Notes under the pieces: model-generated
What the model was told of the DNA's origin: nothing
Databases searched by the model: none
Seen by the model: the letters and a program-made list of their open reading frames with translations, nothing else
Source: a virus
Lineage: Duplodnaviria > Heunggongvirae > Uroviricota > Caudoviricetes
Virus record (IMG/VR): IMGVR_UViG_3300028584_001242
DNA length: 64,000 nucleotides
Reading direction: 5' to 3' (one strand)
Part shown: in pieces, positions 1 through 49,818 of the stretch
Layout: each line of letters begins with the position of its first letter
How positions within the stretch are numbered: position 1 is the stretch's first letter
Program-made: the position numbers and the translations under genes

Positions 1-1214
1 TTGAGTTTTCACCAACAGGTGAAATAATAACAGCCAATGAGAAGTTTTTAAATTTAATGGGATACTCCCTAAATGAAATAGTAGGGAAAAAACATTCTAT
101 ATTGTGTGACAAACTATATGCAAACAGTGCTGATTACAAAAAGTTTTGGAATAAGTTAGAAGCGGGTGAATATATATCTGATATGTTTAAAAGACTTGAT
201 TCAAAACAAAAAGAAATATGGCTAGAAGCTTCTTACAATCCTATATTTGATAATAACAACAAAGTAGTAAAAGTAATAAAATTTGCAAACGATATTACTA
301 GATATGTAGAGGAAAAAAATGAAGATAAAAGTAAATTAGATGCCCTTAATTCATCTATGGCTGTTATTGAGTTTACACCTGAAGGTATTATTTTAAATGC
401 AAACAATAACTTTTTATCAACAACTGGTTATACATTAAAAGAAATAGTGGGTAAACATCATAATATATTTTGCGAAAAAGCGTATAGTCTTCATTCAGAA
501 TATAAAAGGTTTTGGCAAGATTTAAAAAATGGGCAATTTTTTAATGGTCAATTTAAAAGATTAAATAAACAAGGTAATGATATATGGCTTGAAGCAACTT
601 ATAATCCAATAAGAGACGAAAATGGAAACGTAGTTAAAATTGTTAAATTTGCAAGTGACACCACAAAATTAGTTAACCAATTAGATGCTCAAAAGAAAAG
701 TGCAGAACTTGCATTTTCAATATCAAATAATAATAAAGAAACAGCACAAATCTCAGTAACTACAATAAATGAAACAAATAATGAAATGACAAACATTATA
801 AAATCAGTCAGTGCCACAGAGATTCATTTAAAGTCATTAGAAAAACAATCTGAAAAGATTAAAATGATATTAAATGCTATATATAAGATTGCAACACAAA
901 CTAATTTGTTAGCGTTAAATGCTGCAATTGAAGCCGCCAGAGCTGGAGATGCTGGAAGAGGTTTTGCAGTAGTGGCTAAGGAAGTAAAAGAATTATCAGG
1001 CAATACAAGTGACTTAGTTAAAAGTATTTCTGAAATAATAGAGGAAATTAATAAAGAAACAGAATGTGCGGTTAAACAAATGGAAAGTGTAACTCAGAAC
1101 ACAGAAAGAAGTGTAACATTAATGATTGAAGTCGAGCAGTTAGTGACTGAAATAAGTATCGGCTCTGATAAAATATTATCAGCTATTGCCCAATTATCAA
1201 AAGAGTTAAGTTAA
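1..1214 (+). CDS. methyl-accepting chemotaxis protein with tandem PAS domains (aerotaxis-like), 5'-partial
   Basis: The reading frame is open from nt 3, upstream of the listed ATG at 57. Repeated PAS blocks ([43 protein letters not shown]) precede a C-terminal MCP signalling motif [32 protein letters not shown] terminator follows. Confidence 0.8.
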
Positions 1215-2952: not shown

Positions 2953-3087
2953 TTACTCTGCGTCTTGATGGCGATTCCGGCGACGCTTCCGAAACTCGCT
3001 ATCTTTTTTGTGATACTTCGCTTGTTCGTTGTCTTTTTTCTTGCCACCGCGAAAACGTTCTACTGCGTCACCGAAAGAGCCTTGCAT
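2953..3087 (-). CDS. small highly basic peptide, paralog 1 (44 aa, MQGSFGDAVERFRGGKKKD...RRRNRHQDAE)
   Basis: Hand-translated. AGGAGA RBS. It lies directly behind promoter-leader module A. Two paralogs are at 9019..9153 and 49687..49818. Confidence 0.5.
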   Translation of the reverse strand: MQGSFGDAVERFRGGKKKDNEQAKYHKKDSEFRKRRRNRHQDAE

Positions 3088-5456: not shown

Positions 5457-5535
5457 AGAAATATTCCTTTTTTGAATGCTGTTATGATAACAAAAAAAGC
5501 AATTAATGTAAAGATATTATATTGTAGAAACAAAA

Positions 5536-5558
5536 AACCCCTACTATGAGGGGTTTTT
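5536..5558. terminator. bidirectional terminator aaaaaCCCCtactatgaGGGGttttt
   Basis: Hairpin with A-run and T-run. It ends the tRNA transcription unit on the minus strand. Confidence 0.6.
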
Positions 5559-5666
5559 ATATCATCTTAATTAAATTCTCTGATTTAGGTTAAGGTTATA
5601 GCTGCATCGGTAGTTCACCTCGGGCACTCGATTAAATGATCTAGTGGTTAATGTTATTTTTCAATC

Positions 5667-5743
5667 TGGTGGGACTTGCAGGACTTGAACCTGCGACCTA
5701 CCGATTATGAGTCGGTTGCTCTAACCAACTGAGCTAAAGTCCC
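5667..5743 (-). tRNA. tRNA with CAU anticodon (Ile2/LAU-type or elongator Met), 77 nt, CCA encoded
   Basis: Full cloverleaf: acceptor GGGACTT/AAGTCCC, D-stem GCTC/GAGC, anticodon stem ACCGA/TCGGT with loop CTCATAA, T-loop TTCAAGT. The anticodon loop and T-stem are close to E. coli ileX as recalled from memory. Confidence 0.85.
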
Positions 5744-6033
5744 GTGGTTGGTGGCTTAGAAACGTGTCTAAACCACCCAGTATCCTCAATTATATATTCT
5801 CTATTATATTAAGAAGTAAATACCTAGCAATCTATTTCAAGCGACTTCTAATCTCTTTATCGAAGTCCCTACTTTGGATTTATTTGTATACCAAAGGTCT
5901 TAGGTTCTGCCTGAATCCGAAGGATGCCAACCTACGGAAATTTCTGTTAATCCTCTTTCTGGTTCTAGTTAAGAAGGCTCTATTTTAAGCCATCTCATCG
6001 TATTTTGCAACTATTTTTTCGTTTCTTTCAATT

Positions 6034-6118
6034 TGGTGCCCGGTGCCAGACTCGAACTGGCACTCCTTGCGGAAAGGGATTTTAAGTCCCTCGTGTCTAC
6101 CAATTTCACCAACCGGGC
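6034..6118 (-). tRNA. tRNA-Leu(UAA), 85 nt with long variable arm, CCA encoded
   Basis: Acceptor GCCCGGT/ACCGGGC. Anticodon stem AGGGA/TCCCT with loop CTTAAAA. Variable arm TTCCGCAAGGAGTG. T-arm GCCAG-TTCGAGT-CTGGC. Confidence 0.85.
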
Positions 6119-6280
6119 TTAATATGATATGGCCTACTCTATTTATATCTGCACCGAGTAGTTTTCCATACTTACAAGCTATATTGGCAACCGAAGTTGT
6201 TGTTCCAAAACAAGCCACTTGTAAGAAGTGCTAGTTCATTGTTGCAAGATTTTGTTTCTCCGTTTCGTCTTGATGGGATA

Positions 6281-6309
6281 ATTATAGAGAAAATCGGTGT
6301 AGTGGTCAA
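6281..6309 (-). promoter_or_regulatory. consensus sigma70 promoter module B: TTGACC-N17-TATAAT plus leader TATCCCATCAAGACGAAAC, driving the tRNA-Leu/tRNA-CAU unit
   Basis: Minus strand: -35 box at plus 6304-6309, -10 box at plus 6281-6286. The roughly 140-nt leader contains a C(UUCG)G hairpin (plus 6188-6199). Confidence 0.65.
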
Positions 6310-6411
6310 GCACTTTTTTCTATTATTTTACCTTTATTTTCAATAAGTTGCGTAAAAAACAGTTGACAAATTAATGAAAAGACCTACACATGCAGGTCTT
6401 GGTAACGTTCA

Positions 6412-9296: not shown

Positions 9297-9905
9297 TTAT
9301 ATTTCAGCCAAACCAGTTTTAAAGTAATTCGAAATAAGCAAAATGCGATACAAGTCTTTGACCTGACCAGTAGGATATTTTTGAATTTCTTCCTTGATCG
9401 GTGAATAATCAAATTCATAAAATCCCATAGGTTCTTTGGACATAATAACTTTAATCCAACGATAAGCCTTTTGAGCGTCACGATCAGAAAGAAACAACAT
9501 AAGTTCATTGTCTTTGTTAAGGATCGCGTCTTTCACTTCATATTTATAAAGCTTTGAGATATCAGCCAGCGAATTTTCAGCAGCCGCATACAAACCATCA
9601 AGACCAATCATGACGCGAAGTTCTTCAAGATGACAAGCATTTTCCAGAAAAGTCTTATCATGATCCGTAAATTCAGTGTGATGTGAAATAATCGTGGTTA
9701 ATGCCGCCACTTTATTGAGCATTCCGCCCATAATAAGGATGCTAAGTTCACCTTTTATGGATTCAATACAATTGCTGAAAAAACTATTTTTGAGTGGCCG
9801 AGTAAAGAATCCATTTTTTTCAAGGATTTTCCGTGCTTCACCAATATCCATGCCAAGTTTTATGCCGTAAGAAGAGTATTGAGTCATGATATAAAAAGTT
9901 CTCAT
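9297..9905 (-). CDS. hypothetical protein, 202 aa
   Basis: Listed ORF. A -10 box (GTTATAAT) lies only about 13 nt upstream, so the mRNA may be nearly leaderless. Confidence 0.45.
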   Translation of the reverse strand: MRTFYIMTQYSSYGIKLGMDIGEARKILEKNGFFTRPLKNSFFSNCIESIKGELSILIMGGMLNKVAALTTIISHHTEFTDHDKTFLENACHLEELRVMIGLDGLYAAAENSLADISKLYKYEVKDAILNKDNELMLFLSDRDAQKAYRWIKVIMSKEPMGFYEFDYSPIKEEIQKYPTGQVKDLYRILLISNYFKTGLAEI

Positions 9906-9966: not shown

Positions 9967-10533
9967 TTAATTACGATATAAATCTGTTGGTGGCTGGTAA
10001 GTTGCCTCAATGACTACAAATAAATTATAGCTGTTCATTGGGGCTTGAACTTCGACCACCACATCACCTTTTTTGTATTTAGCCCCTGATGGTTTTGTTA
10101 AGTCTTCATACCCTGCAGCAAGAAGTTCACTTTTCGCTTTGTCATAAACTGATAGAGCATTTTTATAAAGTTCTGCTTTGTCAGCTAAATAAAGATCCTC
10201 TGAACGGACTACATCACTAAATGTATAAGTGATTTTACCACTTCTTACGATACCATTAATATACTCATATTCGACTTCTGGGTTAATACGTTCGCCTTTT
10301 TCTACGACAAGTGTTTTCGACAAGATACTGTCAGTATTTGTAGAGACATCAGTAACGGTAATTTGCTTTCCATCTTCTGATGAACGGTAGACTTTGAAAG
10401 ATGGATATTTACCCACCTGTGAAGCCATCTGTGAGCCATTGACAGGGTAGTTAACAGACGCCGGGGCTTCGGCATACACTTGCGAACAAAGTGCGAATGA
10501 CAGGCCAATGAAAGCCAATAAACGATTAATCAT
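9967..10533 (-). CDS. secreted protein with signal peptide, 188 aa
   Basis: N-terminus MINRLLAFIGLSFALCSQVYA. AGGAG RBS. Confidence 0.6.
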   Translation of the reverse strand: MINRLLAFIGLSFALCSQVYAEAPASVNYPVNGSQMASQVGKYPSFKVYRSSEDGKQITVTDVSTNTDSILSKTLVVEKGERINPEVEYEYINGIVRSGKITYTFSDVVRSEDLYLADKAELYKNALSVYDKAKSELLAAGYEDLTKPSGAKYKKGDVVVEVQAPMNSYNLFVVIEATYQPPTDLYRN

Positions 10534-11568: not shown

Positions 11569-11778
11569 ATGGCAAAGAATCAACTGAACGAACATCCGGT
11601 AACAGAACAGATGTTGGAAGGTTTTGAAGTAGGCCAACCGATTGCCCGCTATTGCTTTTTCGTCAACCTGACATTTAAAGGCATTGAAGACGGTAATGTC
11701 GTCATTGCCGACTGCAATGGTGATACCAAGAAACATCCAAAATGGCTCTTTTTGAAGCACGCCCGAGTGGCTAAGTAG
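11569..11778 (+). CDS. hypothetical protein, 69 aa
   Basis: AAAGAGG RBS, followed by a plus-strand terminator. Confidence 0.5.
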   Translation: MAKNQLNEHPVTEQMLEGFEVGQPIARYCFFVNLTFKGIEDGNVVIADCNGDTKKHPKWLFLKHARVAK

Positions 11779-11898: not shown

Positions 11899-11917
11899 CG
11901 TTTGTATCTTAAATTAG

Positions 11918-11990
11918 GAGGACCGACTGGGACTCGAACCCAGAATTCATCCGGTTAAGGACGCTTGTTCCCGTTAAACACCACCGGCCC
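11918..11990 (-). tRNA. tRNA-like gene with a contracted 6-nt anticodon loop (possible non-canonical tRNA or pseudo-tRNA)
   Basis: Acceptor GGGCCGG/TCGGTCC with two G-U pairs, D-arm TGTT-TAACGGG-AACA, canonical T-arm CTGGG-TTCGAGT-CCCAG. The anticodon arm folds only as CGTCC-TTAACC-GGATG. It has its own consensus promoter and terminator. Confidence 0.5.
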
Positions 11991-26815: not shown

Positions 26816-27937
26816 TTACTCGGGAATATCGACTTGTTTACGAGCAAACACCATGATAGCGGCTTGCTTGTAATCAATTTCATTGCCCGAATACTTACTG
26901 ATCAAGACATGCAGCAACAATGGAGCCACTTCTTTGGCTTTACGAGCGTAATCGCCACGTTCCAAACCTTTGTGTTCTTCATAGAAACTTTCAACGGTGC
27001 GAACAAGGTAGTGGTAGCTTTTACGGGCGTAGTCTTCTACTTCATCCAAGCGAGCCAGAATTTCAGCCAGTGGGAAGTTATCGCTGTGCGTCCGGTAATG
27101 ATACAGCGAACGAATTTCGTCCAAAATTTCGTGAAGAGTTGCTTCATAAATAACCTGACGCTCTTTCGACCGATCCTGAATATTGACCACTGCCGACATT
27201 TTCAGGTAAGGGATTGTTTTGACCTTATACATATCAGGGCCAAATTCAACTACATAACCCTCAATTTCAGGGTCATTAACGTTGAGTTCATTGATAGGGA
27301 TACGTTTCACCAAATGGGCCGCAATAACCGGGTATTTGGCAGCAAATTCAGCAGAACGAATATCGACATAAGCACCAGTGCTCATATCACGGGCTTTCAG
27401 GATATGAACAGAATAATCAGTGTATTCAATGAACACGCGGTTCTTGGGCGTGGTCAATTCCAAGTCAACCGAAACACCAGTGCGGGTCAACCGTTCAATA
27501 TCAGCATGCAACTCAGGGCTGATAGATTTTTCAACAAGGTCATAATTGGCAAAAGTTGGCTTCTTTTTGCTCTTGTAGTAAAGCGTATCGTTAACTGGCG
27601 AGATATAGCTGGTCAGCAGGGAACCATCTGGCTTCAAGTAAGCATGATCCGCTTCTTCGGGCTTGATCTTCTGAGTTTCTGGAGTTTCACCGAGCGAGAA
27701 GAATTTCTGCATTGGCAATGCCACCAGCACTGGCTCATCACCGCCCATGTAGAACATGACCCCACGGCAATCTTTAGCACCCGGAAGTTTGAATTCAGAG
27801 TGCTTTGGAATGTCATAGTTGAAGACACGGTAAGTCCCGCCGTCTACTGCTGAGGTTTCATCCCCGTATTTAAAAGACCCCGGATTAGTAACCAACAGGT
27901 TCATCAGTTGGGCATACAGTTCTTGTTGATAAGTCAT
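26816..27937 (-). CDS. RNA ligase, Rnl1 family (T4 gene 63-like), about 373 aa
   Basis: Motif I KPDGSLL. The N-terminal block YRVFNYDIP...CRGVMFYMGGDEP...QKFFSLGE is colinear with T4 Rnl1 as recalled from memory. Confidence 0.8.
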   Translation of the reverse strand: MTYQQELYAQLMNLLVTNPGSFKYGDETSAVDGGTYRVFNYDIPKHSEFKLPGAKDCRGVMFYMGGDEPVLVALPMQKFFSLGETPETQKIKPEEADHAYLKPDGSLLTSYISPVNDTLYYKSKKKPTFANYDLVEKSISPELHADIERLTRTGVSVDLELTTPKNRVFIEYTDYSVHILKARDMSTGAYVDIRSAEFAAKYPVIAAHLVKRIPINELNVNDPEIEGYVVEFGPDMYKVKTIPYLKMSAVVNIQDRSKERQVIYEATLHEILDEIRSLYHYRTHSDNFPLAEILARLDEVEDYARKSYHYLVRTVESFYEEHKGLERGDYARKAKEVAPLLLHVLISKYSGNEIDYKQAAIMVFARKQVDIPE

Positions 27938-27994
27938 GTGAATCTCCACAATTAAATTTGTCTGAATGTATTATATCAAAAACTGATTTTTAAT

Positions 27995-28906: not shown

Positions 28907-30028
28907 TTAAACGGGCGGGGACAAGTCGCCAAGCTCAATTTGTTCCAACGACCAATCCACCAGATGGTTTTTAGAGTAGTGATACAAGTAGTCGTTTTTG
29001 TGACCACGAATCGCCCCCATAACAAAACCAAAGTGTTTATGGCCTTTGAGCTGAATTGCAGCAGCTTTCACGTCAACACCTTTGAATTCAGCAGCAATAT
29101 TATCAACTTCTTTCGACAACGCTTCAATCGAAGCTTTGATAGCGTCATTGATTCGATAAATCTCACTCAAATCAGCCGTTGGCGAATTCAGCGACAAATA
29201 AGCGATGTAATCATCAAGTTTTTCTTCAACCACCAACCGAGCAATATCACGCTCCCGAACAAAGCTAACCGCATGATGGAGGTTCATATACCATTTGGTT
29301 TTGATTTTGATCATGTTACCGTTAACGAATTGAATAACATAGCCTTCAATCCCTTCAACAGTGTTCAGCGACTTCAACAGGGAAGCCAAATCAAATTCTT
29401 CACCAAACAGAGGCTTGTTAACAGGAATATCAAACAACAACGCCAGTTGGTCTTTTTCAGCAGGCATTAAGTAATCGCCTGTGATGTTGTGACGAACATG
29501 AAGCAATGTCATGTTGTCTTCGTCATAACGCAAAACGATACGATGTTTTGGCGAAGTAAATTCAAAAATAGGGGTCAGTTGGGCCTGAGAGCAATATTTA
29601 GTGAACTCGTAGTATTTCTGGTTGCGAGACACAAAGCCTTCTGCCGAAACAGCCACATCCGATTTGAACGACTTCTTGGATTTAGCAAAGAATTCGCCTT
29701 TGAACAGCCCTGTGGTAATCATGGAGCCATCCATTTTATCAAACCCGGCTACCATCGTGCTCCAATCCAAAACGGCTGGCTGGACTTCTGCCCGCTCTGC
29801 CAAGTTAAAGAATTTGTGCAATGGACGCGACAGGATTTTACCATTGTCGTCAAAAGTAATACCGCGAGCTTCTTTTTCAACCGGAGTGTTGAAAGAGTCA
29901 CCGTTGCTGATGTTGTAGCAAACGATATCGGCACCGTTATCCTGTTTATTAACAGAAATATAGGCACGGTCTTTGATATGAGGAATCATATCATCAAGGG
30001 TTTCAATACGCGGGAAGATGCTGGACAT
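28907..30028 (-). CDS. RNA ligase, Rnl1 family, second paralog, 373 aa
   Basis: Motif I KMDGSMI, block ARGITFDDNGKILSRPLHKFFNLAE. Same architecture as 26816..27937. Confidence 0.75.
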   Translation of the reverse strand: MSSIFPRIETLDDMIPHIKDRAYISVNKQDNGADIVCYNISNGDSFNTPVEKEARGITFDDNGKILSRPLHKFFNLAERAEVQPAVLDWSTMVAGFDKMDGSMITTGLFKGEFFAKSKKSFKSDVAVSAEGFVSRNQKYYEFTKYCSQAQLTPIFEFTSPKHRIVLRYDEDNMTLLHVRHNITGDYLMPAEKDQLALLFDIPVNKPLFGEEFDLASLLKSLNTVEGIEGYVIQFVNGNMIKIKTKWYMNLHHAVSFVRERDIARLVVEEKLDDYIAYLSLNSPTADLSEIYRINDAIKASIEALSKEVDNIAAEFKGVDVKAAAIQLKGHKHFGFVMGAIRGHKNDYLYHYSKNHLVDWSLEQIELGDLSPPV

Positions 30029-49597: not shown

Positions 49598-49670
49598 GGC
49601 TGTATGATGGGACTCGAACCCACGACTACCGTTTTTCGACGGAGTTCTGCCGACTGAACTACAAACAGCC
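49598..49670 (-). tRNA. tRNA-like gene with a contracted 6-nt anticodon loop, CCA not encoded
   Basis: D-arm GTTC-AGTCGGCA-GAAC (A14, G18/G19), T-arm GTGGG-TTCGAGT-CCCAT, 6/7-bp acceptor. The anticodon arm folds only as CCGT-CGAAAA-ACGG. It lies immediately downstream of basic-peptide gene 3. Confidence 0.45.
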
Positions 49671-49686
49671 AAAACTGTAAAATTCT

Positions 49687-49818
49687 TTATTCGTTAATGT
49701 GACGATCACGACGCTTCTTTCGCCAGTTCTTGTCTTGCTCATGAGTTTTTGCTTTTTCTGTGTCACGTTTTTTACCACCACGGAAACGTTCTGTTGCGTC
49801 ACCAAATGAACCTTGCAT
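49687..49818 (-). CDS. small highly basic peptide, paralog 3 (43 aa, MQGSFGDATERFRGGKKRDTEKAKTHEQDKNWRKKRRDRHINE)
   Basis: In-frame internal ATG of listed ORF 49687..49869. A TGTATAAT -10 box lies about 30 nt upstream. Confidence 0.5.
   Translation of the reverse strand: MQGSFGDATERFRGGKKRDTEKAKTHEQDKNWRKKRRDRHINE

Follow-up and report, generated by a model that had tools for sequence, protein, structure and literature searches.

What fills the space around two phage tRNA genes that stand 290 nt apart? The genes in question, tRNA-Leu(UAA) and a tRNA with a CAU anticodon, lie on the minus strand of a 64,000-nt stretch of tailed-virus DNA (Caudoviricetes; IMG/VR record IMGVR_UViG_3300028584_001242), hereafter the window, in a transcription unit that also has a leader and a trailer. 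We are moderately confident that this unit yields two rare-codon tRNAs plus three conserved RNA modules, here called L (leader), S (spacer) and T (trailer), which are separate from one another and not filler. Three elements are new: the S family, the leader L, which is conserved, and T, which is present in multiple copies.

The promoter-terminator unit itself is ordinary. In transcription order it consists of a promoter (P1), the leader, tRNA-Leu(UAA), the spacer, the CAU tRNA, the trailer and a terminator. P1 (6281..6309) has a -35 hexamer TTGACC (6309..6304), a 17-nt gap and a -10 hexamer TATAAT (6286..6281); it matches 11 of the 12 sigma-70 consensus positions with a hexamer spacing within 16-18 nt, by which the unit is predicted to be read by the host RNA polymerase with a factor of the sigma-70 type. 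The leader (6119..6274) is followed, after tRNA-Leu(UAA), by a spacer of exactly 290 nt (6033..5744), and a trailer of about 108 nt separates the CAU tRNA from an intrinsic terminator (5533..5558), a G+C-rich hairpin followed by a T run. The original prediction, made from the window alone, had this architecture right, including both tRNAs, the consensus promoter, the length of the spacer and the terminator after the CAU tRNA. Its leader hairpin CAAC-UUCG-GUUG is also present (6199..6188), although the leader measures about 155 nt instead of the 140 nt it proposed. Absent from that description were an internal promoter, a conserved motif in the trailer and the modular nature of the spacer.

The spacer RNA and the signals around it

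Folding of the single sequence sets the spacer apart, its minimum free energy (MFE) beating 200 of 200 shuffles (z -3.44). The leader folded as a whole is not beyond shuffles (z 0.08) and its structure emerges only through comparison with relatives. Leader, spacer and trailer have no family match in Rfam 15 (including T-box, 6S, tmRNA and ribozymes) at gathering or permissive thresholds, the best sub-threshold scores being 10-27 bits against thresholds of 40-96; Rfam scans of the window and its relatives returned tRNAs only.

Relatives were found by means of homologues of a downstream 109-aa open reading frame (ORF) and of DNA patterns taken from invariant blocks. Six lineages at 76-91% identity were obtained, plus near-identical copies, located on a 290-kb IMG/VR contig, on metagenome contigs of 0.5-1.86 Mb and on small contigs. 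A scan of GTDB genomes gave chance matches only and no operon relative, some of the IMG/VR pattern scans gave no additional relatives, and a DUF2807 gene of the window used as query gave no viral relatives. Homologues of the 109-aa ORF at 53-65% in loci L003-L005 stand in unrelated contexts.

The conserved block of the spacer, the S core (5818..5991), is 79-94% identical across lineages (alignment A2, model R1), compared with 83-88% for tRNA-Leu, 60-77% for the AU-rich linkers that flank S and 67-78% for the neighbouring coding DNA. Its fold is a hairpin with a three-way junction immediately after it. The hairpin, helix 1 (5916..5938), is UCCGUAGG-UUGGCAU-CCUUCGGA with a conserved 7-nt loop; two of its pairs change in a compensatory manner (C-G, U-A, U-G at one and C-G, A-U at the other) and 100% of alignment cells are paired. 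A hairpin AUCC-UUC-GGAU that had been proposed by eye was superseded by this covarying helix. The junction (5836..5915) is closed by UUCAGGC/GCUUGAA and carries arm A (5896..5872; CUUUGG/CCAAAG with a variable 13-nt loop) and arm B (5867..5843; GACUUC/GAAGUC), the latter with three compensatory pairs. Over an alignment of seven sequences the fold has 30 pairs, 99% of cells paired and five compensatory pairs. The observed covariation score was reached in none of 500 shuffles, sliding of the pairing partners lowers pairing to 31-58%, and the RNAalifold consensus equals the MFE fold of the single sequence (z -2.91). Since several G-U pairs are compatible only with a minus-strand RNA, the transcribed strand of S is fixed as that of the tRNAs. 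S is thus a conserved structured RNA family with covariation support and a core of about 100 nt; it lies outside known families and is new.

At the upstream end of S lies a promoter-like site of the sigma-70 type, P2 (5982..6010; TTGCAA-17-TAAAAT), which is present in all six lineages in the form TTGnnn-17-TAA(A/T)AT. The 17-nt spacing is constant and the intervening sequence variable, and the distance from tRNA-Leu ranges from 14 to 53 nt; fixed hexamers and spacing within otherwise variable DNA are what is predicted for a promoter. P2 is therefore probably a second promoter for S, as far as its conservation tells, and because no terminator occurs between tRNA-Leu and P2, transcription of S and the CAU tRNA would come from P1 by read-through and, probably, from P2 as well. 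A hairpin GGCUUAAAAUAGAGCC proposed by eye is better explained as the -10 of P2. Another promoter-like site in the spacer, TTGCTA-16-TATAAT (5830..5803), was rejected, its spacing not being conserved in lineages L007 or L020.

Near its end the spacer forms a hairpin, H (5750..5777), GGUGGUUUAGA-CACGUU-UCUAAGCCACC, which stops 6 nt short of the CAU tRNA. A GGUGG/aCCACC hairpin had been predicted here and does exist, yet the bulged form that was described had been read off the non-transcribed strand; in the RNA, H is an unbroken 11-bp stem with one G-U pair. All lineages keep H at a distance of 6-7 nt upstream of the CAU tRNA, including those with T inserted ahead of H. The loop of H varies between lineages, and an extra A-U pair is present in three of them. 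The T-box idea, prompted by GGGUGGU in H, found no support in Rfam.

Leader, trailer and the shuffling of modules

Module L comprises a long hairpin (6225..6171), with 20 bp in three helical segments capped by the CAAC-UUCG-GUUG loop, and an invariant second hairpin (6170..6128). Alignment A4, covering five lineages, has a mean column identity of 92% with 98% of cells paired; the 20-bp stem contains three compensatory pairs, and the score observed for the alignment was reached in 2 of 500 shuffles. An idea that the S loop UUGGCA kisses a leader segment UGCCAA is unsupported, given that L019 is altered on one side only. The transcript would begin with the motif CATCAAGACGAA (6264..6275), common to several promoters of this genome: it occurs six times in the window with 0.45 matches expected, and also heads other operons of small RNAs or small ORFs.

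Module T is marked by a 27-nt motif, box 2 (5602..5628; AGTGCCCGAGGTGAACTACCGATGCAG), preceded by a box AACATTAACCACTAGATCAT and by a weak promoter-like site (5664..5636; TTGAAA-17-GATCAT). The window has one copy of the 27-nt motif; in the loci retrieved, 21 copies are spread over 13 loci, at least seven of these copies in the 290-kb contig and others in five further IMG/VR contigs of 152-437 kb. Two loci, L062 (3400-3900, plus strand) and L074 (3330-3930, minus strand), carry three tandem T units of about 108 nt each that form a non-coding operon of their own, with a P1-like promoter, the same CATCAAGACGAA start motif and a terminator. Most of the other T loci gave no tRNA. Judged by this recurrence, T is apparently a family of non-coding RNA genes that this phage group carries in multiple copies. 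Over its first half T is similar to tRNA-Leu in the acceptor and D region (GCCCGg..GGUGAA), a lead and not a result. Reading box 2 as a hairpin or as an ORF was rejected, with pairing inconsistent and stop codons at varying places. Further loci with the motif are L036, L055, L081, L086 and L087.

The lineages arrange these parts differently. The window and L007 share the layout P1, L, Leu(UAA), S, H, CAU, T, terminator, and the terminator stem is retained in L007 despite a different loop and inner pairs. L016 and L021 have P1, L, Leu(CAA), Leu(UAA), S, an AT-rich stretch, T, H, CAU and terminator. L019 has P1, L, Leu(CAA), an unrelated 276-nt spacer, Leu(UAA), S, H, CAU, two copies of T and the terminator. 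L020, equal to L013, is reduced to P1, a short leader, Leu(UAA), S, H, CAU and terminator, with neither L nor T. P1 is kept in L016, L019, L020 and L021. From these layouts it follows that the non-tRNA parts are discrete modules, each retained, lost or moved independently of the others. A second Leu-CAU pair, with only 14 nt between the genes, occurs in L020/L013, as do further clusters with Arg(UCU).

Other spacers were met in these operons. In L013 an approximately 210-nt spacer between Arg(UCU) and Leu(UAA) (10011-10223, minus strand) is closed by a 10-bp helix, AGUCCAGAAC/GUUCUGGACU, and is unrelated to S, as is the 276-nt spacer of L019 between Leu(CAA) and Leu(UAA) (9500-9775, plus strand); neither has a match in Rfam. 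On the strength of such sequences it seems that structured RNAs of several kinds reside in the tRNA operons of this lineage.

The contigs that carry the operon relatives are themselves large: 498 kb for L016 (Ga0308163_10000024), 678 kb for L019 (Ga0308157_10000028), 1.54 Mb for L020 (Ga0247725_1000001) and 1.86 Mb for L021 (Ga0308158_10000001). L013, the 290-kb viral contig in IMG/VR, is identical to the 1.54-Mb contig over the compared stretch. These contigs might be read as host genomes carrying giant prophages, as misassemblies or as entities exceeding known phages in size.

The two tRNAs and the genes they may serve

Both tRNA genes encode their CCA end and were detected by ARAGORN and by Rfam RF00005, exceeding its gathering score of 29 bits. 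The class II tRNA-Leu(UAA) (6034..6118) scores 57.8 bits (E 7e-10) and the CAU tRNA (5667..5743) 78.2 bits (E 2e-15). For the latter, the prediction had left a choice between tRNA-Ile2 and Met. The nearest E. coli genes are annotated by the Prokaryotic Genome Annotation Pipeline as tRNA-Ile with a CAT anticodon, 66 of 77 positions being identical (86%), as compared with 61/81 for the elongator metT and 50/80 for the initiator metZ (fMet). Ile ranks over Met in all five relatives as well, narrowly so in L019 (62/77 versus 61/80). Initiator tRNA-fMet is marked by an unpaired 1:72 position and by three consecutive G-C pairs closing the anticodon stem; here G1-C72 is paired and the anticodon stem ACCGA/UCGGU is without the three G-C pairs. 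By similarity the body of the CAU tRNA fits neither initiator nor elongator Met and is Ile2-like. We consider it probable that it is a tRNA-Ile2 which would read AUA after lysidine modification, and it should be labelled Ile2 and not Met in annotation.

The tRNA-Leu(UAA) gene (6034-6118, minus strand) differs from its counterpart in L001 (45-129) throughout the anticodon stem and the variable arm, with pairs compensated, on contigs that are 99.3% identical. In its variable arm the window gene is the same as the Leu(CAA) paralogue of L019. Together, the differences from L001 and this match suggest gene conversion or recombination among tRNA-Leu paralogues.

The two tRNAs had been thought to supplement an AT-rich genome, and this fits only in part. 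The window has about 38% GC and its genes are nearly all small and on one strand. Codon counts over 102 of its ORFs give UUA as 12% of Leu codons and AUA as 12% of Ile codons, and in the median gene UUA, AUA and AGA together make up 6% of Leu, Ile and Arg codons. Since these codons are scarce in most genes, the tRNAs do not serve an AT-rich genome generally. A few AT-rich genes use these codons heavily. The combined share is 30-45% in a few such genes and reaches 64% in one at 57-1214 (plus strand), which encodes a chemoreceptor with PAS and methyl-accepting chemotaxis signalling parts. This gene has a GC content of 29%, or 18% at third codon positions, and is unlike the rest of the window in its codons, with UUA at 21 of 31 Leu, AUA at 19 of 35 Ile and AGA at 7 of 8 Arg. 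It has no DNA match in the syntenic relative L021. By composition it looks like recently acquired cargo depending on tRNAs encoded nearby. The tRNAs could thus serve a minority of AT-rich, probably acquired, genes; alternatively they could replace host tRNAs that are scarce or destroyed by defence systems, as has been demonstrated for other phages (PMC11555353). The codon data argue that the tRNAs serve few AT-rich genes or defence evasion, not the whole genome.

Few ORFs of the window match any family. The matches comprise two RNA ligases of the T4 Rnl1 type, AAA_33 (Pnk-like), CinA, NUDIX, RNase T and HNH, and further an acetyltransferase, the DUF2807 protein and the PAS/methyl-accepting chemoreceptor. 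The ligase genes (26816-27949 and 28907-30028, both minus strand) lie about 1 kb apart; with AAA_33, CinA, NUDIX, RNase T and HNH they make up a T4-like set related to tRNA repair and nicotinamide adenine dinucleotide within these tRNA-bearing 64 kb. Blastn against cultured phage records matched the tRNAs only, with no close cultured relative, and the best protein match is a ligase 42% identical to that of a 344-kb Ralstonia jumbo phage. We read the source as a very large phage or phage-like element.

Some further genes are tRNA-like with a 6-nt anticodon loop. The window has two on its minus strand, at 49598-49668 (loop CGAAAA; Rfam tRNA score 42.9 bits) and at 11917-11990 (UUAACC; 26.4 bits, sub-threshold), and L013 has one at 10308-10384 (minus strand; CGGAAA). 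All three have a terminator and a promoter or operon of their own, and with such loops they cannot decode normally. A family of very basic proteins of 41-44 aa (MQGSFGDAVERFRGGKKKDNEQAKYHKKDSEFRKRRRNRHQDAE) is encoded at 2953-3087 and about 49686-49817 of the window and at about 11616-11741 and 10393-10518 of L013, all on the minus strand. These genes use the same promoter type with the CATCAAGACGAA start, and in several cases a tRNA or tRNA-like gene comes directly next in the operon.

Competing explanations and known systems

In the explanation that we favour, the unit would supply tRNAs reading Leu UUA and, most probably, Ile AUA, host TilS converting the CAU tRNA to its lysidine form. The cut by RNase P at the 5' end of this tRNA would set the 3' end of the S transcript, an end that H may protect, and cleavage by RNase E or RNase Z, downstream of tRNA-Leu and within the AU-rich linkers, could free the modules as small RNAs, much as T4 RNAC and RNAD emerge from the T4 tRNA cluster. 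Our best guess is that during infection S acts in trans as a small RNA or serves as a binding partner of a protein.

Several points weigh against this. Only about six lineages are independent and the effective sequence number in model R1 is 1.22. The closing helix and arm A never change on both sides, and because the stem of arm A was preset by our own search patterns its invariance is uninformative. In H, 90% of cells are paired, yet covariation is not above shuffles. A target search of the window with the conserved unpaired tail of S revealed no outstanding target, the best duplex (-20.3 kcal/mol) falling inside the -17 to -25 span that shuffled seeds give. Furthermore, S always lies just upstream of the CAU tRNA, which is compatible with a cis-acting leader. 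As regards the tRNA, its Ile2 identity is based on resemblance to E. coli tRNAs. E. coli TilS has its determinants in the acceptor stem at C4:G69 and C5:G68, elements that vary between species (PMC12514573). The CAU tRNA has C5:G68 but A:U at 4:69.

It is possible, though in our estimate unlikely, that S and H form a cis-acting unit for tRNA-Ile2 only, in which P2 and a long structured 5' leader govern the amount of the CAU tRNA, its timing or its maturation by RNase P; the unit would be degraded after processing and have no function in trans. The conservation of P2 would agree with this, as would the position of S and H immediately upstream of the CAU tRNA in six of six lineages, the constant 6-7 nt between H and the RNase P site even with T inserted, and the lack of a trans target in the window search. 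Against it, the second CAU tRNA of L013/L020 stands 14 nt after tRNA-Leu without S or H, which are thus not required to make a CAU tRNA; L016 and L021 have about 190 nt, including T, between the S core and the CAU tRNA; and a three-way-junction fold of about 100 nt, conserved like a tRNA, exceeds the usual needs of a promoter or leader.

A more speculative and rather improbable reading takes S, T and the short-loop tRNA-like genes not as translation adaptors or base-pairing small RNAs but as decoys or mimics that would soak up host anticodon nucleases or tRNA-modifying enzymes. S would then belong to a phage "RNA island" for a fight over tRNAs. The idea stems from the combination, in the window and its relatives, of rare-codon tRNAs, two tRNA-like genes with 6-nt loops and tRNA-Leu-like T repeats, and also of basic proteins co-transcribed with tRNA-likes, two Rnl1-type ligases and a Pnk-like kinase. 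The S hairpin, helix 1, is moreover anticodon-arm-like with a fixed 7-nt loop.

There is little to recommend the view that spacer and trailer are decayed tRNA genes of a larger cluster under neutral drift. The T box does resemble the 5' acceptor and D region of tRNA-Leu, and the 7-nt loop of helix 1 is like that of an anticodon. A search for a hidden or degenerate tRNA in the spacer by the relaxed and mitochondrial modes of ARAGORN gave no consistent call, only one lineage being called and only in mitochondrial mode, and the Rfam tRNA model found none in S or T up to E 10. As the S core is conserved like functional tRNAs and has compensatory changes, its status as a neutral relic is disfavoured and largely refuted. 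Very improbable too is a selfish insertion, such as a miniature mobile element or intron remnant, between the tRNA genes. It would account for the coexistence in L013 of a compact Leu-14 nt-CAU pair with a Leu-S-CAU pair and for the shuffling of modules among lineages, but model R1 finds one S copy per locus and none elsewhere in the 64 kb of the window or 110 kb of relatives, and terminal repeats, an endonuclease gene and a group I or II intron match are all lacking. That the spacer encodes a small protein can practically be dismissed: a Shine-Dalgarno-like AAGAGGA lies downstream of P2 and mechanical ORFs exist (5764..5988, plus strand; 5985..6218, minus strand), but no start codon is suitably spaced, the frames are interrupted by indels of 1 and 2 nt that distinguish the lineages and rule out a conserved ORF in S, substitutions are without 3-nt periodicity and the minus-strand ORF overlaps tRNA-Leu.

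Three known systems offer comparison. E. coli ileX and ileY (tRNA-Ile2) share with the CAU tRNA the anticodon, the core of the anticodon arm (CGACUCAUAAUCG) and an identical T arm (GGUUCAAGUCC); they differ at the pair read by E. coli TilS, C4:G69 there and A4:U69 here. In bacterial tRNA operons, the 3' external transcribed spacer of glyW-cysT-leuZ acts as a sponge for small RNAs. There a functional RNA is freed from a tRNA precursor by tRNA processing enzymes, as is proposed for the release of S; however, that spacer RNA is short, largely unstructured and acts by pairing, whereas S has a conserved fold of about 100 nt and a candidate promoter.

The closest parallel is T4. That extra small RNAs such as RNAC and RNAD occur in phage tRNA clusters has been known for fifty years. 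In both phages the cluster contains Leu(UAA) and Ile(CAU), so that the predicted match to two T4 tRNA species is borne out, with the tRNA sequences only 64-65% identical to their T4 counterparts; Arg(UCU) occurs in T4 and in the relatives studied here. Non-tRNA small RNAs lie within the same transcription units in both, and RNA ligase 1 of the T4 type and a Pnk-like kinase are encoded nearby here. The T4 RNAs, also called species 1 and 2 stable RNAs and still without assigned function (PMC3014915, PMC9697503), follow the last tRNA, whereas S stands between two tRNAs with its own candidate promoter; here, moreover, there are three distinct modules, of which T also forms separate tandem operons. 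Model R1 had no match on T4 70908-71171, the rnaC/rnaD region. The original prediction that the spacer could hold a small stable RNA like these therefore holds as to an RNA gene, by conservation and covariation in six lineages, but not as to kinship with RNAC/RNAD, where the likeness is one of position only. So far as these sequences can tell, the resemblance to T4 lies in design and not in descent: very large phage-like genomes of another, uncultured lineage follow a T4-like design with three conserved modules that are unrelated. It suggests that the making of small structured RNAs beside tRNAs recurs among phages, and several candidate families result.

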